Sequence record: PQ631072.1
Source of the DNA: Escherichia phage EC.P2
Direction: 5' to 3' (one strand)
DNA: 64,000 nt
Part shown: positions 36,118 to 64,000 of the stretch, one piece after another
Numbering within the stretch: the stretch's first letter is position 1
Layout of the letters: the number at the start of each line of letters is the position of its first letter
Notes under the pieces: model-generated
Database searches by the model: none
Told to the model about the DNA's origin: nothing
What the model saw: only the letters and a program-made list of their open reading frames with translations
Program-made: the position numbers and the translations under genes

Positions 36118-36912
36118 TTACGCTTTTGCTCCGAATTTTTTAACCCACTCACCAAACTCTTCAGATAACAATTTATCGTAAAGTTCTTCATCAGACAAGG
36201 ACAAATCTGCAATACCGATAAAATCAACATTATCGTACTCTTTTGCCAAGTCTTTCAGGAATTTAAAGTTTGCATTACCTACACCAACCATAAACCAGTA
36301 AACAGGCGTATTGCGGTGTTTGTTCAGTAAGCTACGTACTGCTGAAGTATCCATGTTTTCCCCGTCAGTTTGGAAGAAAATCATTGCAGGAGTACGATCA
36401 ACTTGTGCATCAGTGTCTACAACCTGTTCTACAACAGTACGTGTTACTTCTACAAGTTCTTTTTTACCAGTTAGTTTAGCAAGGAAACCCTTAGCTGGGA
36501 CTTCTTCATACTCAACGACTTCGCGTGTAATATTTTTCATAGGTACACTACCGAAGTATGTATCATAGATCTCCTGCATTACTGGAGCATAAGCAGTACC
36601 ACCATTGATGCAAACATTAGACATGCAAGAGCCGACATAATCATCATACACATCAGCCGTTGCAGGAGGCAGTTCAAAAGAAGAACTATTGAAAGCCCAC
36701 ATGTCAATCTGTGCATTGTCATCAAACTTCATACCAAACGGCAGCAGTTTACCTACAAAATCACTAACAGTGCCATCACGATACAGCTCACACATACTAC
36801 CCGAAATATCTAAGGCGCTACCGACACGAAGAACAACATCGTTAATCTTTTTCTTACGCAGAGATACAGTAAGAGTTTCTTGACGTTTTTTAAGACTGAT
36901 TTTATTGGACAT
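36118..36912 (-). CDS. vWA-domain protein (vWA-TerF-like)
   Basis: 264 aa; MIDAS motif ALDISGSM; N-terminal leader MSNKISLKKRQETLTVSLRKKK mirrors TerD N-terminus. Confidence 0.65.
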   Translation of the reverse strand: MSNKISLKKRQETLTVSLRKKKINDVVLRVGSALDISGSMCELYRDGTVSDFVGKLLPFGMKFDDNAQIDMWAFNSSSFELPPATADVYDDYVGSCMSNVCINGGTAYAPVMQEIYDTYFGSVPMKNITREVVEYEEVPAKGFLAKLTGKKELVEVTRTVVEQVVDTDAQVDRTPAMIFFQTDGENMDTSAVRSLLNKHRNTPVYWFMVGVGNANFKFLKDLAKEYDNVDFIGIADLSLSDEELYDKLLSEEFGEWVKKFGAKA

Positions 36913-36913
36913 A

Positions 36914-37183
36914 TTATTTCTCCTTTCTGAGTGTAATGTTAGTAACTTCTAAATCCACTTCTACCATTTCTGTATCATATGAAATACAGCTAAGTTGACC
37001 TCTTTGTGAACCGTTCAGACACATTGCTTGGTTTGTATTAACTTTAATAAACACTAAGTTTCTGAACGTATCTAAACCAGAATCTTGATACGCAACATAA
37101 TATACGAATGTATCACCTGCGTCAAGTTCTCCAAAACATTTAGGTTCATCTGATTTATCGTCTTTGATATTAAATTTAAGCAC
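36914..37183 (-). CDS. hypothetical protein
   Basis: 89 aa; stop 2 nt upstream of vWA start. Confidence 0.4.
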   Translation of the reverse strand: MLKFNIKDDKSDEPKCFGELDAGDTFVYYVAYQDSGLDTFRNLVFIKVNTNQAMCLNGSQRGQLSCISYDTEMVEVDLEVTNITLRKEK

Positions 37184-37739
37184 TGTCTTCTCCTTTACCT
37201 GCCCTCCAGCCTAAATAGAAAGCCTCTCTGGTGATCTTTTGCAACTCGTTTAAAGAGATAGTTACAACTAAATTATCTTCAATTTCTAGCTTTGAGTCTT
37301 CTTCTGTCTCAATGCAAGTATTATGCACTTTGTGGTAAGGATTGTCAACACGTTTAAATTTATTATTTTCAGTGCTGAAGAAGCAATCTGGATCTTCTTC
37401 TCCATCACCCCAACCCTGGTTAGGGTCTTCTTCAGATCTTTCTGTTGGGATCTCACCTGTAAAGTGCTCTTCTAATACCATAGCGATACCATCTCCAAGA
37501 TCGGAAGAGAACATCAAATTACAAACTTCTTCCCAAGGCATAGACCACTTAAATCTTTTACGATTACCATGTTTATCTTCTTCGTTAGAGAAAACACTAC
37601 CATAGCTATCATAATTGCCATACATCTCTTCAACAACTTTACCACCTTTCAAAAGAAATAGGTAGCAAGGAGAACCATCGAAAGAGGTAGAAAGAGCAGC
37701 ATTGCCAGACTCTTTGCACAAGAAACTAAAACACCCCAT
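37176..37739 (-). CDS. hypothetical protein
   Basis: 187 aa acidic ORF inside Ter-like cluster. Confidence 0.4.
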   Translation of the reverse strand: MGCFSFLCKESGNAALSTSFDGSPCYLFLLKGGKVVEEMYGNYDSYGSVFSNEEDKHGNRKRFKWSMPWEEVCNLMFSSDLGDGIAMVLEEHFTGEIPTERSEEDPNQGWGDGEEDPDCFFSTENNKFKRVDNPYHKVHNTCIETEEDSKLEIEDNLVVTISLNELQKITREAFYLGWRAGKGEDSA

Positions 37740-37939
37740 TATACACCAGCCTTAAGATCAATTAAAGCCAAAGTTGTTTCAGAATGTGTTTGCTCGTCTA
37801 CAGGTGCAGTCATATGATAATACAAAAAGTCTTCGGCATCATACCAATCTGATTCTTGACCTTGTTTCCAACCATCAATGAAAGCATCCTCCATAATGGT
37901 TTGTAATTCTTCACGAGTTAAGTGAATATCTTTATTCAT
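37739..37939 (-). CDS. hypothetical small protein
   Basis: 66 aa; 1-nt overlaps with both neighbours. Confidence 0.35.
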   Translation of the reverse strand: MNKDIHLTREELQTIMEDAFIDGWKQGQESDWYDAEDFLYYHMTAPVDEQTHSETTLALIDLKAGV

Positions 37940-38172
37940 TACACATTCTCCTCTTTTACCAATTCCATCGTTGAACTATCAAAACCATCTTTAGAAGAAT
38001 AGGTATAGACAGAACGTAGTTCTCGCAGGACAGTAAATACATTAGGATCATCTAACCAAGCATCCTGGAGGAGAACATAACGATCTTCATTGTCATACTG
38101 GACAGCAATCATAGAACCAGACAGTTTGTAAATTTTAATATTCATAATATATTTCTCCTTAAAGTAGACCAC
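37939..38172 (-). CDS. hypothetical small protein
   Basis: 77 aa. Confidence 0.35.
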   Translation of the reverse strand: MVYFKEKYIMNIKIYKLSGSMIAVQYDNEDRYVLLQDAWLDDPNVFTVLRELRSVYTYSSKDGFDSSTMELVKEENV

Positions 38173-39262
38173 GTTTAACAGTTTGAATCATACCATCTTC
38201 AAGAGATTGCACTTCTTGAATGTAATCAATACGAGCAGCACGGGCTTCAGTGTTGATTCGGTTAGTTTCTTCCAACATTTTAACTAAGTTTTCTTGATCG
38301 CGACGTAATGTTTCAATATCCAATACTTGACGATTAGCAAGTTGCGTAGCTTCAATTTGGTTTTGTGCAGCCAGATCACTACCCATTGCAATAGCAGCAT
38401 TAAATTCATTCAGTACATTGTTCTGTGTATCGGCTGCTTTCTTCTGGCGTAGACTTTCAATATACATAGAAAAGTTTGCAGAGTAAGCAGGAATAACATT
38501 ATTCACAATATTACGGGCTGATCGCATCAAACTTGCAGATACTTTCTGCATACTTTGTACACGTGGCCCCATCTGAACACACAGTAAACGCAAGGCTTTC
38601 AGGTCTGCAATACGAATTTCAAGCAGATCCATAGTATCACGAGTACGTTGACGCTCTTCTACTTCATTTTCAGGTAGTGTATTAAGGCGAACTTCTTCTT
38701 TTTCATAAGTAGCTGTTAGAAGCTCTATATCCCTGTTTAAGCTAAGAGCATATTTTGCAATAGCCTCTTCTAAACGTTGCAGATATCGTAAAGAATCTTC
38801 TTCTTTTTTCAAGTCTGTTTGGAGTGTCTTTACCAAACCTTCAATACGATTATTGATGGTGTCAAATTCACCAAACAAATCTTCTTTCATACCTAATACT
38901 TTCTTAACTAGTTTACCTAAGCCTTTAGATTGTTTAATAGAATTAGGATCAAGTTGCTTTGCTTGCTTAATAAGTGCAGTTAAACGCTCACTCATTTCAT
39001 CTCCCTGAGATGAACGCTGGTGTTTAAGCACTTCCGCATTAAGGTTACGAAGAGTAAGTCCTGCATCAGCACCAACCTGTTCAATCTCTTCACGAGACAT
39101 TGGAGGCAGCATTTGTACAGGTCGTGCAACAGCAGGGGCATATACAGGGCTTGCATCCATAGCAGTTGGAGCAAACAAAGACTTACTTTTTTCTGTTGTT
39201 GCCGTGAATACACTCATTTCAGACGGTTTGCTTTTTACGGCACTGATAAAAGGACTGGACAT
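38159..39262 (-). CDS. telA: TelA-like (toxic anion resistance family) protein
   Basis: 367 aa, long helical/coiled-coil protein of TelA size and composition; GGAGGA RBS; sits between TerD/vWA and TerC. Confidence 0.5.
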   Translation of the reverse strand: MSSPFISAVKSKPSEMSVFTATTEKSKSLFAPTAMDASPVYAPAVARPVQMLPPMSREEIEQVGADAGLTLRNLNAEVLKHQRSSQGDEMSERLTALIKQAKQLDPNSIKQSKGLGKLVKKVLGMKEDLFGEFDTINNRIEGLVKTLQTDLKKEEDSLRYLQRLEEAIAKYALSLNRDIELLTATYEKEEVRLNTLPENEVEERQRTRDTMDLLEIRIADLKALRLLCVQMGPRVQSMQKVSASLMRSARNIVNNVIPAYSANFSMYIESLRQKKAADTQNNVLNEFNAAIAMGSDLAAQNQIEATQLANRQVLDIETLRRDQENLVKMLEETNRINTEARAARIDYIQEVQSLEDGMIQTVKRGLL

Positions 39263-39330
39263 TCAATTTCCTCCATATTCTTTAGTAGATGGTGATACCT
39301 CTGTACCACCATCATAACACAAATTAAGTA

Positions 39331-40182
39331 TTAAACAAACATATCTAAATAATTTGTAGTAATAAATGCTCCATCTGCTTCCAGATTAACATAACCAGTA
39401 GCATTAGTGGTTAAGAAATCCAGATCGAAGGACTCTTTAACACCCCGTACCTCAACACGAGAGATATCGAATACAGGTAGTGTAACAGCCTCTTCGTGCA
39501 ATACCGTACCTTTGTAGGTTGCCTTAATGATAAACTTGATATTACCCGTTCCCGCATCATACAAAACACTTTCAAAGCCTTTGAGAGTATACTTATCACC
39601 AGAGGTGAAGTGCAAAGTTGCTTTGTTTACAGTACGTTTTTTACGAGGAGTTCCTTTCACACGTTTATGATCACTACGTTTTTTGTATTTAGGAATGAAT
39701 ACAAACGATACACTCTCAAGAAAAGTATCAACATCAAGGATTTTAATATCCTCTGTTGCAGCAAATTTTGAAGTCGTTGCATCAAAATGCTTTGCTCTGC
39801 GATCATACATAAAGATATCAAACCGATCTTCTAAATCAAACAAATTGTGTATCTTAATTTCAGAATGCTTGCACATTGCAGCAACCTTAAACTCTTCAAA
39901 ACGTGGGTGTTCTACAAGCTCTTCAAGTTTTACACCAAAGACAGTATATTGTTTCGAAGTTTTTTCTGGCGTTGGCATTACAGAAGCATAATCACCGATT
40001 GCGCTTTTAAAGCAAAATTGTTCTTGACCTGTATTTTTACCAACGAATTTACAGTATTCGTCATCGTGCATACTTTCTTTGGTAGTACCAACAAACTCAA
40101 AACCATCTTTATTCTTCTCAAGAATTTCTTGATTAAAGATCCAACCTTCCAGGCGATACACTTTACCAACTTCTAGTTTCAT
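39331..40182 (-). CDS. hypothetical protein
   Basis: 283 aa ORF between TelA-like and lipoprotein genes. Confidence 0.4.
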   Translation of the reverse strand: MKLEVGKVYRLEGWIFNQEILEKNKDGFEFVGTTKESMHDDEYCKFVGKNTGQEQFCFKSAIGDYASVMPTPEKTSKQYTVFGVKLEELVEHPRFEEFKVAAMCKHSEIKIHNLFDLEDRFDIFMYDRRAKHFDATTSKFAATEDIKILDVDTFLESVSFVFIPKYKKRSDHKRVKGTPRKKRTVNKATLHFTSGDKYTLKGFESVLYDAGTGNIKFIIKATYKGTVLHEEAVTLPVFDISRVEVRGVKESFDLDFLTTNATGYVNLEADGAFITTNYLDMFV

Positions 40183-40217
40183 CTGTTTCTCCTTCTTATT
40201 TAATCTGTATTAAATTA

Positions 40218-40808
40218 TTAACGACGACGTGAGCTACTAAAACTACGTTTCGACGAAGAATAACTTTTCGAAGACTTACTATAAGAGCTAATAGGGCTTG
40301 AGTAAGACTTACGAGCAGAGTAATTACTATTCACTTTTGTTGTTGATGGGCGTGAATACGTTTGTACACTTTGCTGCTTAATTGTGTTTTGTTTAGTGGT
40401 TGTATATGTATTCCCTTGTTTATCATAAAAACTATGCTTTTGTGTTGTATATGCTTTACTATTAGTTGTAGGAGCAGCGTTGTTATTGATAATTGTTGTA
40501 TTGCTACCGCCATCTCTATAACCACCACCGCCACTATTACCACTCAACATATGACCAAGAAGCATACCTGTAGCAAATTCACCTACACCAGAAGAACCAC
40601 TGCCGCCTCCTTGCACAACAACTGTTGAAGGTTGTGCAGGTGCTGCTTGAACAACTTGAGGTGCAGGTTGATTTACATATTGTTCATCTACCATCTGATT
40701 TGGTGTTTGTTGGTAACGTTGGTTTTGTACATTTTCAGAATCATCACAACCTACCAGCAATGCACTACCTAATACAACTGCAACAATAAAAGATTTAATG
40801 TTTTTCAT
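40218..40808 (-). CDS. lipoprotein with glycine-zipper segment
   Basis: Track ORF 40218..40823; ATG at 40808 (MKNIKSFIVAVVLGSALLVGC) gives signal peptide with lipobox LVGC; GGGSGSSGVGEFATGMLLGHMLSGNSGGGG; Ser/Tyr/Lys-rich C-terminus ending RRR. Confidence 0.5.
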   Translation of the reverse strand: MKNIKSFIVAVVLGSALLVGCDDSENVQNQRYQQTPNQMVDEQYVNQPAPQVVQAAPAQPSTVVVQGGGSGSSGVGEFATGMLLGHMLSGNSGGGGYRDGGSNTTIINNNAAPTTNSKAYTTQKHSFYDKQGNTYTTTKQNTIKQQSVQTYSRPSTTKVNSNYSARKSYSSPISSYSKSSKSYSSSKRSFSSSRRR

Positions 40809-41001
40809 TTGTAACCCTCTCATTTAAAGTCTCAACACAATTTTTAAAATCTCTAGAGAAACAATACATCTGTTCTCCGTTCCTGTTGATAGTAATTGTA
40901 TGGTTATCAACATATGTTGTCAAGATAAAAATCAAACAAAATAACCCTAAAGCAAAACAAATATTTTCAAACAGAATCCAAAGAACACGTAAAACCACCA
41001 T
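40795..41001 (-). CDS. small hydrophobic protein
   Basis: 68 aa, one TM helix. Confidence 0.3.
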   Translation of the reverse strand: MVVLRVLWILFENICFALGLFCLIFILTTYVDNHTITINRNGEQMYCFSRDFKNCVETLNERVTNEKH

Positions 41002-41015
41002 CAGATCACCTCAAC

Positions 41016-41034
41016 AAAGCCCCCGAAGGGGCTT
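41016..41034 (-). terminator. hairpin terminator after TerC gene
   Basis: AGCCCCCGAAGGGGCT palindrome just below TerC stop. Confidence 0.5.
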
Positions 41035-41040
41035 AATGAA

Positions 41041-42018
41041 TTAAGCAACAGTCTGGTCTTCTTTTTCAGGGAAGATTAAACTTGCAATAACACCCAGCCC
41101 CAGAGTACCTAACACAATATACATACTGATCGTCGGATCAATGTGTGCTGGCAGGAAACTCACTTTTGCGTGCAGAGTTTCTGCAAACGGGTGATACATC
41201 AGTTTTACACCCACAAATACCAGGACTACGATAACTGCTTTCTCCAGATGAACCAAATATTTCAGTGCAACACTAAGGACAAAGAACAGAGCACGTAGAC
41301 CTAAAATTGCACACAGCATTGAAGAAAATACAAGCAGAGGTTCTTGTGTCACTGCAATTACTGCTGGAACAGAGTCTACTGCAAAGATTACGTCAACCAT
41401 TTCCATTACAAACACACAAACCAATGCAGGAGTTGCTACACGAACACCATTTTTGATTGTGAAGAACTTCTCACCATCCATCTGATCAGATACAGGGAAC
41501 AGCTTACGAACAATGCGAGTAGCCCAGTGTTTAGAGTAATCAACTTCTGCGTCATTATCTCCAGCGAATACCATTTTAGCTGCGCAGAAAAGGATGACCG
41601 CACCGAAGAAGATATTAACATACCAGCCCAAACTCAACAAGTAAGTACCTACTGCTACAAACACACCTCGGAAGACAATCGCACCTGCAATACCCCAAAG
41701 TAGAATCTTGTGCTGCAAGTGTGTGCTTTTAATACCAAAACTTGCGAATACTGCCACAAATACTACTAAGTTATCTACAGAAAGAGATTTCTCCAACACA
41801 TACCCACTCAAGAACAAGCTCGCAAAATCAGCACCGTGTTGGAAGTATACAAAACCATAGTAGGCTAATGATACCCCAATCCAGAAAATTGACCAGCCAA
41901 TTGCAGATTTAAATGAAATTTCTTTGTTTTCTCTGTGTCCAAAGAAATCAATACAAATCGACAAGACTAAAATACCCACTAAAACAACCACATCAATAAT
42001 TGGGAAACCCAGTTGCAT
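41041..42018 (-). CDS. terC: TerC-family integral membrane protein
   Basis: 325 aa, multiple TM helices, conserved acidic/Asn motifs (LSVDNLVVF; AVDSVPAVIAVTQEP); GAGGAG RBS. Confidence 0.7.
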   Translation of the reverse strand: MQLGFPIIDVVVLVGILVLSICIDFFGHRENKEISFKSAIGWSIFWIGVSLAYYGFVYFQHGADFASLFLSGYVLEKSLSVDNLVVFVAVFASFGIKSTHLQHKILLWGIAGAIVFRGVFVAVGTYLLSLGWYVNIFFGAVILFCAAKMVFAGDNDAEVDYSKHWATRIVRKLFPVSDQMDGEKFFTIKNGVRVATPALVCVFVMEMVDVIFAVDSVPAVIAVTQEPLLVFSSMLCAILGLRALFFVLSVALKYLVHLEKAVIVVLVFVGVKLMYHPFAETLHAKVSFLPAHIDPTISMYIVLGTLGLGVIASLIFPEKEDQTVA

Positions 42019-42036
42019 TCTTTTCTCCTCTTTAAT

Positions 42037-42055
42037 GCGGAGGACAATCCTCCGC
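42037..42055 (-). promoter_or_regulatory. GC hairpin immediately upstream of TerC RBS
   Basis: GCGGAGG-ACAAT-CCTCCGC; on minus strand lies between upstream gene stop and TerC Shine-Dalgarno, no T-tract. Confidence 0.3.
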
Positions 42056-42095
42056 TCTATGTCGTATACTATAAACTGTTTTTAAAGAAAGTCAA

Positions 42096-42344
42096 CTAGT
42101 TCAGTTCTGTAATTTTAAGTTTATCTTCTTTGTTAATGATAGGGAAAGCTACAGCATCACCTACATCATCAATAAAGCAAACAGCAAGACCACCTTCCAC
42201 TTTGCTAACCTGACCATTAAAGGCGTGATACGGGGCAGGAACAATATCTCCATCTTCAAGGAGAATAGCCTCATAAACCTTACCAACAGTACAATCACGA
42301 GTGTTTATAAATTTTTCAAGCACTTCAACATTTACTTTACGCAT
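42096..42344 (-). CDS. hypothetical small protein
   Basis: 82 aa. Confidence 0.4.
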   Translation of the reverse strand: MRKVNVEVLEKFINTRDCTVGKVYEAILLEDGDIVPAPYHAFNGQVSKVEGGLAVCFIDDVGDAVAFPIINKEDKLKITELN

Positions 42345-42358
42345 ATAAAGATCCTCTC

Positions 42359-42565
42359 TTATTTGTTAGATTGAAAGATACCACGAAGTACCGCAAGAAT
42401 GAACGTCACACAGACTACACTCCAAAACGTTACAGGAACATGATGCCAGTCTAAGCCGATAATGTCAATCATATAGTTGTATGCTAAAAGCAGTAGCCAA
42501 CTAGGGATTAACACAATCAAGAACACAACAATAAAACAACCTAATACTGCTAAAACACCTGCCAT
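42359..42565 (-). CDS. small membrane protein
   Basis: 68 aa, two TM helices. Confidence 0.4.
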   Translation of the reverse strand: MAGVLAVLGCFIVVFLIVLIPSWLLLLAYNYMIDIIGLDWHHVPVTFWSVVCVTFILAVLRGIFQSNK

Positions 42566-42574
42566 ACTTTCTCC

Positions 42575-43291
42575 TTATTTCAGTTTGTAAACAATTACAT
42601 TTAAACCTTTGTTCACTAGAGTTTCTTCGATCATAAGTTTTACAATATTCCAAGAACCTCCAGCCAAACCACAACCAAGCATTGGTAAACCTACAATTTT
42701 ACCGCCTGAAGATACAACATCGTCTCCCATACTATCTAACGCATTGTAGATAGCTTCATAATTCAGGTCACGCTTACCTTCCTCACGACGACTATAACCA
42801 TATTGTCCATATAAATTATAAATTGTCAAATTGTTTTCTGTATACTTAGTAAACGTACCTAATTTTTTATAATCACCACGTTTAGTGGCACAATCTGCTT
42901 TAAACGCACCAGGCCACTTGCTTTTAATTTTTGGTGCAATACCACTACCCATAGTGCAAAAACAGTTACAGCAGTGTGCTATAGCGTCTATATCGCCTCT
43001 CTCTGCTGCTGCTAAAAGATCACCGTATACCTCAATGATACCTGGTGGATAACTTGTTACAATCTCATCTTCCCAGTACATTTGCTCTACACCACCGATC
43101 AGTGCAAAGTTTTGTGTGATGCGATCATCAATATAATTAAGACCTGAAACATACACAGCATATTCATCCTGTGCTGTAATGCCTTGTACACGAATTCTTA
43201 AGACACCATCTTTATCTGTTGCTACACGCCCAAAATCTTTTTCTGTAATATTGGTGATAGGATCTCCGAAAGTCGTCACTTTATTAGACAT
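42575..43291 (-). CDS. macro-domain protein (TARG1/OARD1/DarG-like ADP-ribose hydrolase fold) with N-terminal extra domain
   Basis: Track start is TTG at 43408 inside PRTase gene; ATG at 43291 (MSNKVTTFG) overlaps PRTase stop by 8 nt. C-terminal half AHCCNCFCTMGSGIAPKIKSKWP ... LPMLGCGLAGGSWNIVKLMIEETL ... VIVYKL parallels TARG1 (AHCISEDCRMGAGIA ... [24 protein letters not shown] ... ITVYTL). Confidence 0.7.
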   Translation of the reverse strand: MSNKVTTFGDPITNITEKDFGRVATDKDGVLRIRVQGITAQDEYAVYVSGLNYIDDRITQNFALIGGVEQMYWEDEIVTSYPPGIIEVYGDLLAAAERGDIDAIAHCCNCFCTMGSGIAPKIKSKWPGAFKADCATKRGDYKKLGTFTKYTENNLTIYNLYGQYGYSRREEGKRDLNYEAIYNALDSMGDDVVSSGGKIVGLPMLGCGLAGGSWNIVKLMIEETLVNKGLNVIVYKLK

Positions 43292-44141
43292 AATAATCCC
43301 CTTTAACATTAGATTTGTTGATAATGTTGCTTTCAAAAAATTGACGCAGGAAATCAAAGTTCTCTTTGTATTTTTCAATATTATTGTAACCTTCTGCAAG
43401 GCAACCAAAGAACAGTTGTTCTACATAATACAAAGGAAGTTGTGAAAGTGCAATTTTAAAATCAACTTCGCTTTGACTCATTAGATACTTAATAGGACGA
43501 ACCAAACATTTAGCATCAGTTTCTTGCTTAATCATTTTAATAAAAGCTGCCAGGTTATTGATATAGTTGAAGTTAAGTGCAGCTTCGGTGTTGGCTTCTG
43601 TACCTTCATACTTTGCAAAGTACAGGAAAAACGTATCGTTTTCAACACCTTCTTTGTCTAAAATTTCAATAAGTTTTTCTTCGTGTGTTCCTGTAATATT
43701 AACATCATCAATGAAAATCAGAGTTTTATTACCCCAGAAATCACGATTGATAGAGAAAGTGTCACCATCGATCAAAGCCTTACGATCTTCTTTGCTAAGA
43801 AATCCATAATCATTGATATAACTCACTTTACGATGAACGATATCCCACTCTACTGCTTTACCTCCTTTGATAGAGATTAGGTAGTTGAGGTGATCTACAA
43901 AATGTTCAGATAACACTGTAGCTGCATTTTTCACATAGTTATATGGAGATGGAATAACAACAAAACTTTCATTTACTAGTCGTTCTTCATATTTAGAAAA
44001 GAAACTTTCAGCTAGAATGCGTCCCATTCTTTTTGCTGCCTGGTTACTACCAAACTTTAGTTTGGAATAATCTGCAATGTTAAATTTTGCTTCCTTCAGG
44101 TTAGTAAAAGTATTAGCAAAATGTTGAATTTGATTACGCAT
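43284..44141 (-). CDS. phosphoribosyltransferase (type I PRTase fold)
   Basis: 285 aa; PRPP-binding motif TLIFIDDVNITGTHEE; ATG with AGAGGA RBS; stop/start overlaps with both neighbours. Confidence 0.65.
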   Translation of the reverse strand: MRNQIQHFANTFTNLKEAKFNIADYSKLKFGSNQAAKRMGRILAESFFSKYEERLVNESFVVIPSPYNYVKNAATVLSEHFVDHLNYLISIKGGKAVEWDIVHRKVSYINDYGFLSKEDRKALIDGDTFSINRDFWGNKTLIFIDDVNITGTHEEKLIEILDKEGVENDTFFLYFAKYEGTEANTEAALNFNYINNLAAFIKMIKQETDAKCLVRPIKYLMSQSEVDFKIALSQLPLYYVEQLFFGCLAEGYNNIEKYKENFDFLRQFFESNIINKSNVKGDYYV

Positions 44142-44790
44142 TAATAAGTTCCTCTTTTTTAAGTTTAGCCAACAAGTCTTCTGGATTAATAATATGACAG
44201 AACTTCATCCCTATGTCAACAGCTTTTCCATCATAAATCAAACTATCTCCAACGTGTAAAATCTCCTCTGGTGCGAGATCAAACGTTACCATTTCATCAA
44301 AAGAGAGTTTAAAAAACCTAGGATCTGGTTTACACAAGCAAAACTCATCAGAAAAATGCATAAAGTCAAATGGTAATTTTGTTAAGCCAGAATATACAGC
44401 TAAGAAACTACCTGGTACAAAATTAGTATTGCTCTTAATACTCAAAGAATAGGTTGAACTTAGCTCTTCCAACTTCTTGCAAAGCTCAGGGTTCAATATT
44501 GGAGGATGTTTTATAAACATTGCTAAACAGTCTCTTTTTAACCCATCTACTTTATCAAGATCAATGTTCAAACGAGCAGAGAGTGTTTCCCAAGCATTCC
44601 TAGACGTTCCACAAATGCCTTTTTCTGCTTTTAAATCCAGGAGAGTTTTTACCTCTTTATATACGGTAGCTGCTTCTGCTTCAGAACAAGAGGCATACTC
44701 GGCAATAACCTTGTTGCGTTCTTCTGCATACAAAGGATTAGCAGTAATAAGAGTATTCCATACATCAAAAGAAATATGCTTAACAGTCAT
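44134..44790 (-). CDS. HAD-superfamily phosphatase
   Basis: Track start TTG at 44808; ATG at 44790 with GGAGGA RBS gives MTVKHISFDVWNTL (HAD motif I DxxxT); later HVGDSLIYDGKA (motif IV-like). Confidence 0.6.
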   Translation of the reverse strand: MTVKHISFDVWNTLITANPLYAEERNKVIAEYASCSEAEAATVYKEVKTLLDLKAEKGICGTSRNAWETLSARLNIDLDKVDGLKRDCLAMFIKHPPILNPELCKKLEELSSTYSLSIKSNTNFVPGSFLAVYSGLTKLPFDFMHFSDEFCLCKPDPRFFKLSFDEMVTFDLAPEEILHVGDSLIYDGKAVDIGMKFCHIINPEDLLAKLKKEELINA

Positions 44791-44792
44791 TT

Positions 44793-44948
44793 TTAATCCT
44801 CCGTCCAAAAGAATATCATCTGCTTAATTTTATTGATCTCTTGATGTAGTAACTTTCCAGCATGTGATTGATCTTTAATATTGACAGCAAGAATTTCAAG
44901 CTCCGTTAGTTTTTCCTGGATAGCTTTATATTCATCATCTGTAAGCAT
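44793..44948 (-). CDS. hypothetical small protein (below ORF-track cutoff)
   Basis: 51-codon ORF found by hand (MLTDDEYKAIQEKLTELEIL...); weak RBS; stop overlaps HAD RBS. Confidence 0.3.
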   Translation of the reverse strand: MLTDDEYKAIQEKLTELEILAVNIKDQSHAGKLLHQEINKIKQMIFFWTED

Positions 44949-45192: not shown

Positions 45193-45197
45193 ATCAC

Positions 45198-46358
45198 TTA
45201 GTAAGAACGACCACCAAACACATACTCTGTGTAGTTTTTACGTTCTTTGTTTTTAATAACAACTTCAATGTTGTTACCTTTATCATCGGTGAACATAAAG
45301 TGATAACCGTCACCACCCATTGTACGAATGTGTTTTTCATCATACGTTAGCAAGATACGGTCTACACCCCAGTAGTAGTCACCTTCTTCATCTTTATCTT
45401 CCACAGTAACGATCCCTTCCATTTCAGGAAGATGCTCTTCTCCTGACTTATGATCTACAGCTACAACATAACGATTACCGCTAAACAAACCTTGTGCTGT
45501 CATACCGTCAATATCGGTATCTGACGAAACATCTCCTGTACGATCTACACCGTTAACTTTCAGAAGTTTAACTTCTTTTGCAGCATAGCGGTGTTCAGTA
45601 ATACTGATACCCATTAATGCAAGTGCATCAGAGAATTTGTCATTAGGGTAACGGTTAAGTTCTTCTACTAATGACTGAACAATATCAAAGTTCAAGTCCA
45701 CGGAAAGATTATAAAGCGTTTCAAAATCTGGCAAGAAGGCTTTGTTCTCCAGATTTTTAGCCAGATAATCATCCATAGTAGCTTTAGGTAGTTTCTTATA
45801 GCTAAAACTGTAGAAAATACGGCTAGGACGATTACGCAAAAATTCTGATACATAACCATCATTTTTAGTCAATACAAACAGCTTGTCATAACCACCAACA
45901 CCATCCAGCAGGGTAAGCAAACCATCTTGTGCATCTTTTTCAGCATACAGTTTATCAAATTCATCGATCATAATCATCACAGGTTGTGTGATTTTAGACA
46001 TAAAATTGATAAAGCCTTCACCATTAAAAGCACTACCGATAGAAATAGTAGGAATACCCATTTCACGAAGAGCAGAAGACAGCATTTTAGCTTGCAAAGT
46101 TTTACCGCTACCTTTCGTACCCTCAAGGAGAACACCTGTGTTTTTACCTTTGCGGCTAAGGAACGTCTTGATAATACGTTCTGATTTATCATCAGTATCA
46201 CCGTATGTTACTGAAGGGACTTCCATATCATTTTTAGGATACAGGAAGAACTCACCACTTTGAGTAACACCTACACCAAAAGTTCCTGCTGGGATTTCTT
46301 CAATATCTGTACCAGATTTCTGACGCAGGAAGATTTGATTGCCGAATACTGTAAACAT
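45198..46358 (-). CDS. AAA+/P-loop ATPase (paralogue A)
   Basis: 386 aa; Walker A GTKGSGKT, Walker B IMIDEFDK; clear paralogue of 61376..62503. Confidence 0.65.
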   Translation of the reverse strand: MFTVFGNQIFLRQKSGTDIEEIPAGTFGVGVTQSGEFFLYPKNDMEVPSVTYGDTDDKSERIIKTFLSRKGKNTGVLLEGTKGSGKTLQAKMLSSALREMGIPTISIGSAFNGEGFINFMSKITQPVMIMIDEFDKLYAEKDAQDGLLTLLDGVGGYDKLFVLTKNDGYVSEFLRNRPSRIFYSFSYKKLPKATMDDYLAKNLENKAFLPDFETLYNLSVDLNFDIVQSLVEELNRYPNDKFSDALALMGISITEHRYAAKEVKLLKVNGVDRTGDVSSDTDIDGMTAQGLFSGNRYVVAVDHKSGEEHLPEMEGIVTVEDKDEEGDYYWGVDRILLTYDEKHIRTMGGDGYHFMFTDDKGNNIEVVIKNKERKNYTEYVFGGRSY

Positions 46359-61375: not shown

Positions 61376-62503
61376 ATGAAATACACGATTTATGGTGATA
61401 TTGTAAGTGTAAATAAAGATATGGGTGTGGAATCTAATTATCTTCCACCTGGATTCTATACTGTTAGTCGTGATCCCCTTGGCAATTATTTTTTAAGCCG
61501 TGGTAATCTAACAGGTGTACCGGATGTTCTGTATGGTGAAACAGAAAAACGAGCAAATCACGTTATCCGTACATTCCATCGCCGGAGTGCACAAGGTAAA
61601 AATACAGGTTTGCTTCTGACAGGAACTAAGGGCAGTGGTAAAACTATGTTAGCCAAGCTCATTAGTCGTGACCTTGTAGAAGAAGGTATTCCAACTATTA
61701 TGGTTACTCAAGCCTACAGTGATGCTAATTTCATTGAACTTATTAGCAAGATCACCGACAAAGCAGTGATTATTTTTGACGAGTTTGATAAAGTATATGA
61801 GAAGAAACAAGATCAAGAAGCACTTCTCACTTTGTTAGATGGTACTGGCAGTGGTAATAAACTGTTTATTCTAACTAAAAACAGTGGCTTTATCTCTGAA
61901 TTCTTTCTAAATCGTCCTAGTCGTGTGTTTTATAATTTTAATTATGATAAAATCTCACTAGAAACTATGATTGACTATTTAGATAAAAACCTGGATAACA
62001 AAGCACACTTTGATAATTTCCAAAGACTTTGGGATGTAAGTTTAGAGTTGTCCTTTGATGTGATCCAAGGTATAGTAGAAGAACTTAATTTCTACCCTGA
62101 TTTATCCTTTAAAGAATGCATCTCTATGATGGGCGTTTCTTTGGGTGGTGGTAATAAATGGGATATCAGTAGCGTTATTATTAATGGAAAACTTCAGAAA
62201 GTTAGCTGGGTATCTAGTTGGCATAACTTTACACCTGCAATCTTTTTAGGTGGCTCGTGCACACTAGACGTGTACTTGTCATCTCCAAGTGATGCAGATT
62301 CTAAAGAAGCCCTTGCTAATAGCTCTTACGTGGTTTTTGATGATGAAGGCGATGCTCGAATTCCGTTGAATGCGACAAAAATGAAAGCAGACCTTATCAC
62401 AGGCGGTAAAATCGTTGTGTTTAGTGATGATCCAGAAGATTCTTTCCGTATTGTTCTGGAACCAACTATCACCAATGGTGCAACTTTGGCAAGTGTGTTT
62501 TAA
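61376..62503 (+). CDS. AAA+/P-loop ATPase (paralogue B)
   Basis: 375 aa; Walker A GTKGSGKT, Walker B IIFDEFDK; shares many blocks with 45198..46358 (e.g. LLTLLDG, LTKN-G, FL-NRPSR). Confidence 0.65.
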   Translation: MKYTIYGDIVSVNKDMGVESNYLPPGFYTVSRDPLGNYFLSRGNLTGVPDVLYGETEKRANHVIRTFHRRSAQGKNTGLLLTGTKGSGKTMLAKLISRDLVEEGIPTIMVTQAYSDANFIELISKITDKAVIIFDEFDKVYEKKQDQEALLTLLDGTGSGNKLFILTKNSGFISEFFLNRPSRVFYNFNYDKISLETMIDYLDKNLDNKAHFDNFQRLWDVSLELSFDVIQGIVEELNFYPDLSFKECISMMGVSLGGGNKWDISSVIINGKLQKVSWVSSWHNFTPAIFLGGSCTLDVYLSSPSDADSKEALANSSYVVFDDEGDARIPLNATKMKADLITGGKIVVFSDDPEDSFRIVLEPTITNGATLASVF

Positions 62504-62516
62504 GTAAGCCAGCAAA

Positions 62517-62543
62517 TAAAAACCCGCTTCGGCGGGTTTTCTT
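62517..62543 (+). terminator. rho-independent terminator
   Basis: AAAAACCCGCTTCGGCGGGTTTTCTTG. Confidence 0.7.
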
Positions 62544-62577
62544 GTATTGATGCCAGATTTAATAAAAGGAGTAGTAG

Positions 62578-63750
62578 ATGGTAGCACTAAAATCATGGGA
62601 ACAATATAAAGAAGAATTAATACCCCTTGCTAAAAATCACAATATTCAAATCTTGGGTTATGTTGGTGAATGGAAAGGGAACAAGACTAAACTTAAGCTA
62701 TCTTGCCCTAAACATGGAGAGTGGAACACCACGAACATTAATGATTTTAAGAAGGGACGTGGTTGTCCTATCTGTTCTGGTAAGAAGCCGTTAACATGGG
62801 AAACAGAATTGCCGATCTTGGAAGAGATAGCACAGAAGAGGGGGTATCAGGTGTTAGGGTACGTGGGAGAATGGAAAGGGAATAAAACAAAACTTGATTT
62901 GTTGTGTCATTGTGGTAATAAATGGGATACTACAAGTATTAACAATTTTAAACGTGGTAGCGGTTGTCCACAATGTAAGAGGGAGAGACAAACAATGTCC
63001 GACGATCAACATATTGCAGATTTCTTTTCTACAGGGGAATTTAAGGAAGGCACTATCTTCACCAATACAGGGAAACGTAACAAGCGTGATGCAGTATGGA
63101 TGGTTGAGTGTCCTGTTTGCTCCCATGATGAATATGTTCAAGCAGGTGTTTGTGATGGTAAATTTTACTCTGCAGGACATAACCTTAAACAAGGGTATAT
63201 TCCGTGTCGTTGTGGGAACTATCAGTATACAGAAGACCAGATCACCTATAGGGTAAAAAAGGAAGTAGAAGGGAAAGGGTATGTCTGGGTAGATTGGATT
63301 ACCAAACCCTCTTCTATAGGTAAGTTTAAATATCTTTGTCTTGTGCATGGTGAGCAGATAGGGAGTGCTCGTAATTTATTAAGCCTCGGTCAAGGTTGTC
63401 CACAGTGTGCTGGTCATAATCAACAGCAATTATATATTAATATTGTTAAAGATAATGATATTATAGTTGCTCTTAAGTTTGGTATATCTAAAGATAGCGA
63501 TAGACGATTAAACGGTCAAAATAGCCGTAATCTGTTTTTTATGGAGCGTATTTGTTTATATGATTTTAGCACAGTGAAACAATGTAGGGCTGCTGAAAGA
63601 GCTATAAAGAAAAAATTAAAAACTGGTATTTTAACGGCAAGAGAGTTGAAAGATGGTTATACAGAAACAGTAAGTGTTTCTGATTTGGAAAATCTTCAAA
63701 AAATTATTACACAATATGGTGGCAAATTAGTATACAGTAAGGAGATGTAA
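62578..63750 (+). CDS. Zn-ribbon-repeat protein with C-terminal GIY-YIG-like (T5orf172-type) domain; homing-endonuclease-like
   Basis: 390 aa; two near-identical modules (ILGYVGEWKGNKTKLKLSCPKHGEWNTTNINDFKKGRGCPICSGKK / VLGYVGEWKGNKTKLDLLCHCGNKWDTTSINNFKRGSGCPQCKRER), further CxxC pairs, then YINIVKDNDIIVALKFGISKDSDRRL. Confidence 0.5.
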   Translation: MVALKSWEQYKEELIPLAKNHNIQILGYVGEWKGNKTKLKLSCPKHGEWNTTNINDFKKGRGCPICSGKKPLTWETELPILEEIAQKRGYQVLGYVGEWKGNKTKLDLLCHCGNKWDTTSINNFKRGSGCPQCKRERQTMSDDQHIADFFSTGEFKEGTIFTNTGKRNKRDAVWMVECPVCSHDEYVQAGVCDGKFYSAGHNLKQGYIPCRCGNYQYTEDQITYRVKKEVEGKGYVWVDWITKPSSIGKFKYLCLVHGEQIGSARNLLSLGQGCPQCAGHNQQQLYINIVKDNDIIVALKFGISKDSDRRLNGQNSRNLFFMERICLYDFSTVKQCRAAERAIKKKLKTGILTARELKDGYTETVSVSDLENLQKIITQYGGKLVYSKEM

Positions 63751-64000
63751 ATGCGGATTACTGATAAGTATGTGTTCTTCTTCTCGGCAAAAGATGAATT
63801 TAGCAACTGGTATCTATCATCTTTTATTGAACCTTTAGCTCCCAAGTATAATAATTCTATTACAAGTTCTGTTGAATTTACTTGTGTGGAACAATATATG
63901 ATGTGGAGAAAAGCATGTTTGTTTTATGATTACAACATTGCATCTTCTATTTTAACCGGAGATCTAAGATATACAGGAGAAAAAGAACAGGCATATTATA
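63751..64000 (+). CDS. NADAR (YbiA-like) domain protein, 5' partial (runs off window)
   Basis: ATG at 63751 directly after previous stop; VFFFSAKDEFSNWYLSSF ... VEQYMMWRKACLF matches NADAR signature. Confidence 0.6.
   Translation, partial: MRITDKYVFFFSAKDEFSNWYLSSFIEPLAPKYNNSITSSVEFTCVEQYMMWRKACLFYDYNIASSILTGDLRYTGEKEQAYY

Follow-up and report, generated by a model that had tools for sequence, protein, structure and literature searches.

The BASEL phages Bas60, Bas61 and Bas62 carry the gene of a distinct NADAR protein, named AdfN-Bas60, which clusters with bacterial NADARs that are neither DarT-associated nor YbiA (Johannesman, Awasthi, Carlson and LeRoux, Nat Commun 2025; PMC11825919). Expressed from a plasmid, AdfN-Bas60 neutralises DarT1 in uninfected E. 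coli and allows RB69, T5 and Bas25 to regain full titres on a DarTG1 host, and it is without benefit for T5 on DarTG2 (PMC11825919). The T4 protein gp30.3 (AdfN-T4) counters DarTG1 only in T-even phage infection and is ineffective by itself when cells are uninfected (PMC11825919), and E. coli YbiA hydrolyses guanosine-linked ADP-ribose (G-ADPr) in vitro yet leaves cells unprotected from DarT1; activity in vitro is therefore no guarantee of the physiological target. On DarTG2 hosts, the single T4 gene needed is tk.4, named AdfM (2025 preprint). T4 is thus already known to pair AdfN with AdfM, and PhiKZ gp104 provides a second AdfM precedent.

Here, we analysed a 64,000-nucleotide stretch of Escherichia phage EC.P2 (PQ631072.1; hereafter, the window), at the very end of which a NADAR gene begins. 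The features at this edge are the following.

62519..62540, plus strand: terminator-like hairpin AAAACCCGCTTCGGCGGGTTTT between an AAA-ATPase gene and the CapR/NADAR pair, also found at L001 6520-6541 in the identical stretch of Bas62
62578..63750, plus strand: CapR/T5orf172 gene (390 aa; Pfam), directly upstream of the NADAR gene
63739..63744, plus strand: Shine-Dalgarno sequence AAGGAG of the NADAR gene, 6 nt before the ATG, as read from the sequence
63751..64000, plus strand: NADAR gene, first 83 of 183 codons (ORF, Pfam NADAR, full length in Bas62, residue map and fold)

The NADAR ORF starts at the ATG at 63751, which abuts the TAA stop of the upstream 390-aa gene (63748-63750), and its frame is still open at 64000, the last base of the window. 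The 83 codons within the window translate to MRITDKYVFFFSAKDEFSNWYLSSFIEPLAPKYNNSITSSVEFTCVEQYMMWRKACLFYDYNIASSILTGDLRYTGEKEQAYY, and the sole ORF on the opposite strand is 49 aa long with a TTG start. The initial annotation had assigned this truncated ORF to the NADAR family from two motifs, and both are present, at aa 9-20 (FFFSAKDEFSNW) and aa 46-55 (VEQYMMWRKA). The 83-aa fragment by itself reaches 36.4 bits against Pfam NADAR PF08719 (E 7.8e-9; cut-off 35.1), and the motifs are therefore no chance match. Two of the residues discussed below, E47 and K54, lie inside the window; R88, W98, R102, E134 and D139 are encoded beyond 64000.

The remainder of the gene can be read in Bas62 (Escherichia phage JohannJBalmer, MZ501084.1; Stephanstirmvirinae, Justusliebigvirus, phi92 group), the closest public record, with 98.7% identity over the last 25 kb of the window and 100% identity over positions 62000-64000. 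Elsewhere, the identity of the window to Bas62 varies from block to block (96.1-99.3%), and this pattern, together with the identical last 2 kb, suggests that the phage may be a mosaic or recombinant Justusliebigvirus relative. The full-length ORF in Bas62 has 183 codons (bas62_0106, annotated 'putative YbiA-like N-glycosidase'). Sixty-two blocks encode an identical upstream 390-aa protein, and 24 of the contigs were read; in each of the eight listed, a 183-aa NADAR gene directly follows this protein and has, relative to the Bas62 protein, two substitutions at most, all among positions 62, 96, 99, 137 and 178, and each of the eight shows at least 49 mismatches to the window in 7.4 kb. E134 and D139 are present in the Bas62 continuation and in all eight listed contigs. 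Bas62 and these eight contigs hence give strong grounds to expect the same last 100 codons, including E134 and D139, in the window phage.

Conservation of the gene extends through the genus, where all 55 records retain it in full at a nucleotide identity of at least 96%. The orthologues of the window gene are AdfN-Bas60, bas62_0106 and phi92 gp223. The Bas62 protein is 98% identical to that of Bas60 (bas60_0111) and 99% identical to that of Bas61; the substitutions between Bas62 and Bas60 (N62S, T96D and A178T) touch no catalytic residue, and the 83 residues within the window equal those of Bas62, Bas61 and Bas60, save N62S in Bas60. Between Bas60 and Bas62, the gene differs by ~21 nucleotides but by only three amino acids, which indicates purifying selection. 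It is also a single-copy gene: an HMM of 69 homologues, run against Bas62 in six frames, revealed no second NADAR gene (next best E 0.25).

Sequence and predicted fold both confirm the Bas62-type 183-aa protein as a NADAR. At full length, the Bas62 protein scores 125.5 bits against Pfam NADAR (E 3.1e-36), and its best solved relative in sequence is the Phytophthora nicotianae NADAR (PnNADAR, 8BAU; E 2.4e-12, 28% identity), with E. coli YbiA marginal by phmmer (E 0.03). An AF2 model, computed with 69 homologues for the cluster representative (P0001, 98% identical to the Bas62 protein), adopts a YbiA-like alpha+beta fold with a mean pLDDT of 96.9 and a pTM of 0.91. In a Foldseek search of the PDB, its only significant matches were PnNADAR 8bau with ADP-ribose (E 4.9e-10, TM 0.77) and YbiA 2b3w (TM 0.68-0.73). 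Among PADLOC models, the protein matches only the candidate-system NADAR model PDC-M42C, a result that carries no further information.

The ADP-ribose-contacting residues of PnNADAR were identified by Schuller et al. 2023 (PMC11543638). In the HMMER alignment to 8bau, Pn E43, K50, R79, W89, R93, E125 and D130 correspond to E47, K54, R88, W98, R102, E134 and D139, respectively, and Pn W133 corresponds to Tyr142. Across the 69 homologues, E47, K54, W98, E134 and D139 are invariant and R88 is nearly so. Mutating the Glu/Lys pair equivalent to E47/K54 (E88/K95 in DarG1 of E. coli C7) cripples both DarG1 and AdfN-T4. Position 134 is occupied by Glu, the state of YbiA-type and general NADARs, whereas DarG1 has Asp and T4-type phage NADARs have His. 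The Pfam score, the fold, and the catalytic Glu/Lys pair with the acidic residue of the last strand all place the protein in the NADAR superfamily. The initial annotation had allowed that the full-length protein might lack the catalytic residues of the family; all seven aligned residues are there.

The window gene is phage-encoded, has no cognate DarT adjacent to it and is orthologous to a tested AdfN, as expected of an AdfN. We therefore read the window ORF as the 5' part of the single NADAR gene of phi92-like phages, an AdfN-Bas60 orthologue and a DNA ADP-ribosyl-glycohydrolase countering DarTG1, and give this reading a probability of roughly 0.85. Given the 98% identity between the Bas62 protein and the tested AdfN-Bas60, the central interpretation of the initial annotation, a NADAR that reverses ADP-ribosylation of guanine on DNA, is right and already known: the Bas60 protein has been demonstrated to neutralise DarT1 and to counter DarTG1 but not DarTG2, and the published record of 2025 supports the interpretation for the whole Bas60/61/62 orthologue group. 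The published tests used the Bas60 allele expressed from a plasmid, from which the window-type allele differs at three positions at most (62, 96 and 178), none of them catalytic. In the literature searched, we found neither a deletion of the NADAR or macro gene in a phi92-like phage nor DarTG plating data for Bas60-62.

The host toxin DarT1 modifies guanine of single-stranded DNA at N2 with ADP-ribose and blocks replication. By a plausible mechanism, the phage NADAR would bind the guanine-linked ADP-ribose and cleave the N-glycosidic bond, releasing ADP-ribose, with the conserved Glu47/Lys54 pair and Glu134/Asp139 as the presumed participants in the chemistry. Like DarG1, it would act on the product of the toxin and not on the toxin itself, and could in this sense be regarded as an orphan, toxin-independent 'antitoxin' that would leave thymidine-linked ADP-ribose in place. 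Phage replication would then proceed in E. coli with DarTG1, and the native gene would presumably protect the window phage during infection.

In Bas62, the NADAR gene borders a long block of small genes, and its neighbours are an AAA ATPase, the CapR/T5orf172 protein and small hypothetical genes. The 390-aa protein encoded directly upstream combines three CapR homology domains (146 bits) with a T5orf172 endonuclease-like domain (20.6 bits), and its gene is probably co-transcribed with the NADAR gene. The length of this upstream gene varies among the phages (1404 nt in Bas60, 978 nt in Bas61 and 1173 nt in Bas62), in keeping with a gene that is mobile or changes quickly. Two paralogous AAA-ATPase genes, annotated 'FtsH-like protease' or 'hypothetical', lie within the window; the first, at 61376-62503 (plus strand), just precedes the CapR/NADAR pair, and the second, at ~45197-46357 (minus strand), is beside a trio of HAD, PRTase and macro genes. 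In Bas62, the intergenic region after the NADAR gene, 0.5-0.9 kb past the position of the window end (L001 8502-8856), carries three ~70-nt direct repeats (TTATTTAAAGTTTTT...GAAAATGAAAAGTTCAA). The same region contains three copies of the palindromic motif ATGAGAATCATT, which resembles a Fur box.

The second gene of interest encodes a macro-domain protein and lies within a Ter-like cluster that spans 36118-44808 on the minus strand. Its recognised members are listed below.

36118-36912, minus strand: vWA-TerF-like gene
38159-39262, minus strand: TelA
41041-42018, minus strand: TerC
42575..43291, minus strand: macro-domain protein, bas62_0068 orthologue and candidate AdfM-like partner (Pfam Macro, solved relatives and Tk.4 match)
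43284-44141, minus strand: ComF-like PRTase (PF15610), overlapping the macro gene
44134-44808, minus strand: HAD hydrolase

Beyond the HAD gene lie an AAA ATPase and NrdG/NrdD. The initial annotation had described a TARG1-like macro protein at 42575-43291 and proposed that it forms, together with the NADAR, a two-enzyme kit against both types of DarT. The gene and its macro domain are real (31.1 bits against Pfam Macro; cut-off 22); the label 'TARG1-like', however, is inexact, because the alignment to TARG1 (4j5q/4j5r) places Q and A opposite the catalytic K84 and D125, respectively. The closest solved relatives are instead BT1257 and SCO6735 (E ~4e-15), followed by TARG1 (2e-10) and DarG (7e-4). 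The active site combines a Gln aligned to SCO6735 Q85 and TARG1 K84, the conserved Asn (HCCN) and a GCGLAGG loop; with its Macro domain, this Asn and Gln at the catalytic position, the protein belongs to the TARG1/DarG/SCO6735 class. Streptomyces SCO6735, which has Gln85 where TARG1 and DarG have lysine, is an efficient hydrolase of thymidine-ADPr on DNA and protects E. coli against DarT (PMC9411070). Against T4-type Tk.4, the macro domain shows 34% identity (E 1e-20). The N-terminal ~85 aa have no Pfam match and are found only in ~68 phage records, mainly of Justusliebigvirus, being absent from the homologues in Phapecoctavirus and T4.

In the proposed kit, the NADAR would remove the G-ADPr left by DarT1 and the macro protein the T-ADPr left by DarT2, thereby covering the phage against both DarTG types; we place this proposal at even odds. 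The anti-DarT2 role of the macro protein, taken by itself, is likewise finely balanced. It gains from the proximity to SCO6735 and BT1257, the former a proven thymidine-ADPr DNA hydrolase, from the likeness to Tk.4 (AdfM), from the precedents of AdfN with AdfM in T4 and of AdfM in PhiKZ, and from the PADLOC and NCBIfam DarG models, which match the macro part. The same match, however, covers only model positions 4-147 of 329-338, and the macro protein therefore lacks the DarT2-binding domain of DarG2; it also lacks the catalytic K84 and D125 of TARG1. The genomic position suggests another role, since the gene sits in a conserved HAD-PRTase-macro trio inside the Ter-like cluster, and it lies 20 kb from the NADAR gene and on the opposite strand. 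We infer the link between the two genes from what their products are.

The trio is conserved in the sister genus Phapecoctavirus (ESCO37), where the macro protein is without the ~85-aa extension. In Ter systems, the PRTase and HAD enzymes are believed to produce a signal resembling a nucleotide (PMC7824862), and the trio together with the surrounding cluster suggests that the macro protein may have a competing role in the Ter-like module. The NARP3 system was considered as a link to the PRTase and HAD genes beside the macro gene and was set aside as unrelated on comparison with the NARP3 paper. More tentatively, phi92-like phages might carry a complete dual anti-DarT pair assembled independently of T4, with a Glu134 NADAR that may also erase cytidine-ADPr and RNA guanosine-ADPr and a Gln-type macro protein, bearing the novel ~85-aa N-terminal segment, that may both de-ADP-ribosylate DNA and process a ribosylated nucleotide signal. 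This combination is doubtful as a whole; the double task of the macro protein is suggested by the presumed co-transcription of its gene with those of a HAD phosphatase and a ComF-like PRTase in a phage Ter-like module.

A rather unlikely alternative for the NADAR protein itself is that its main targets are other ADP-ribose conjugates, with reversal of DarT1 modification as a partial role or side activity; candidate targets would be cytidine-ADPr, RNA guanosine-ADPr from other toxins, low-molecular-weight ADPr and NAD-derived signals. C-ADPr on both DNA and RNA is stripped by enzymes of the general 'NADAR family' and YbiA type but not by DarG1 or the T4 NADAR (PMC12945103), and the window-type protein is nearest to the general type, both by its match to PnNADAR and by Glu, not Asp or His, at position 134. 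According to Iyer et al. 2022, phage NADAR and Macro domains mostly target small ADPr derivatives and co-occur above chance. Genomic context can be read in the same direction in homologues of ~42% identity, which adjoin NAMPT, Pribosyltran, nucleoside deoxyribosyltransferase or NMNAT-like (CTP_transf_like) genes, and in Bas62, which encodes, outside the window, a sirtuin and a PRPP-synthetase-like/Nampt-like pair. However, the NADAR gene in Bas62 is not beside NAD-salvage genes, a small-molecule substrate has been shown for no phage NADAR, and in vivo, phage titres recover and DarT1 is fully neutralised when the Bas60 orthologue is present (PMC11825919). We therefore retain countering of DarTG1 as the preferred function.

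The ~42%-identity homologues sit on metagenomic contigs of 354-455 kb that are jumbo-phage-like (L018, L020, L021). In Bas62, a sirtuin-family gene (L008 19890-20702), the PRPP-synthetase-like and nicotinamide-PRTase-like pair (L009 4255-6953) and an RNA ligase with polynucleotide kinase (L008 48470-49807) together make up what is, judged by gene content, a broad NAD/ADP-ribose and RNA-repair toolkit. The pair resembles NARP1 NAD+ reconstitution.

The GenBank annotation implies a YbiA-like housekeeping N-glycosidase that destroys reactive intermediates of the riboflavin pathway, which we consider very improbable: NCBIfam TIGR02464 ('riboflavin biosynthesis intermediates N-glycosidase') is passed with 109.7 bits against a cut-off of 73.7, and the Bas60-62 records carry 'putative YbiA-like N-glycosidase' and several others 'GTP cyclohydrolase II', but the likeness to E. 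coli YbiA itself is so marginal (E 0.03) that the TIGR02464 model must be broad, Bas62 has no annotated rib genes, near the NADAR gene or elsewhere, riboflavin repair has no evident use to a lytic phage, and E. coli YbiA fails against DarT1 in cells where the Bas60 protein succeeds. It was on the genomic context and on this failure of YbiA that we rejected the riboflavin role despite the TIGR02464 score.

Our analysis indicates that a counter-defence gene was correctly recognised from raw sequence alone. It adds no new biology for the NADAR, since the gene, the AdfN name and the anti-DarTG1 activity were published in 2025 for the Bas60/61/62 phage group. What remains of interest is the candidate anti-DarTG2 role of the macro partner and how wide a range of substrates (C-ADPr, RNA) the general-type NADAR clade may accept, with a modest bearing on the choice of therapeutic phages and on forecasts of phage host range among E. 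coli that carry DarTG.

Compared with the known systems, the window gene is the same gene as AdfN-Bas60, in the same place after the AAA-ATPase and CapR/T5orf172 genes. With AdfN-T4, it shares the state of an orphan phage NADAR; AdfN-T4 strips G-ADPr from DNA and counters DarTG1 but not DarTG2. AdfN-T4 nevertheless belongs to another NADAR clade, such that BLAST and PSI-BLAST searches from it miss the Bas60 type (PMC11825919), it has His where the window type has Glu134, and, unlike the Bas60 type, it neutralises DarT1 only during T-even infection. DarG1, whose substrate is G-ADPr on single-stranded DNA, has the same fold and the same catalytic Glu/Lys pair; however, its N-terminal beta1-beta2-alpha1 extension is missing in the Bas62-type protein, in which the domain begins with residue 1, the Pfam match at residue 13 and the first strand spans residues 7-10, and the DarG1-specific Asp (D171 in E. 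coli C7) is replaced by Glu at position 134. No ART- or DarT-like gene was found beside the NADAR gene in the window, in Bas62 or in the neighbourhood of the eight listed contigs. The lack of an adjacent DarT, the missing extension and the Glu at position 134 led us to reject an identity with DarG1. PnNADAR 8BAU is the best match in both sequence and fold, with the ADP-ribose-contacting residues kept, the window protein differing in being phage-encoded. E. coli YbiA (2B3W) has the core fold in common (TM 0.68-0.73), but its sequence likeness is marginal and it gives no protection from DarT1. For the macro protein, AdfM (T4 Tk.4 and PhiKZ gp104) shares the ALC1-like/TARG1/DarG-class macro domain and SCO6735 the Gln-type active site; unlike either, the window protein carries the ~85-aa N-terminal extra segment, and its gene belongs to a HAD-PRTase-macro operon of the Ter-like cluster.
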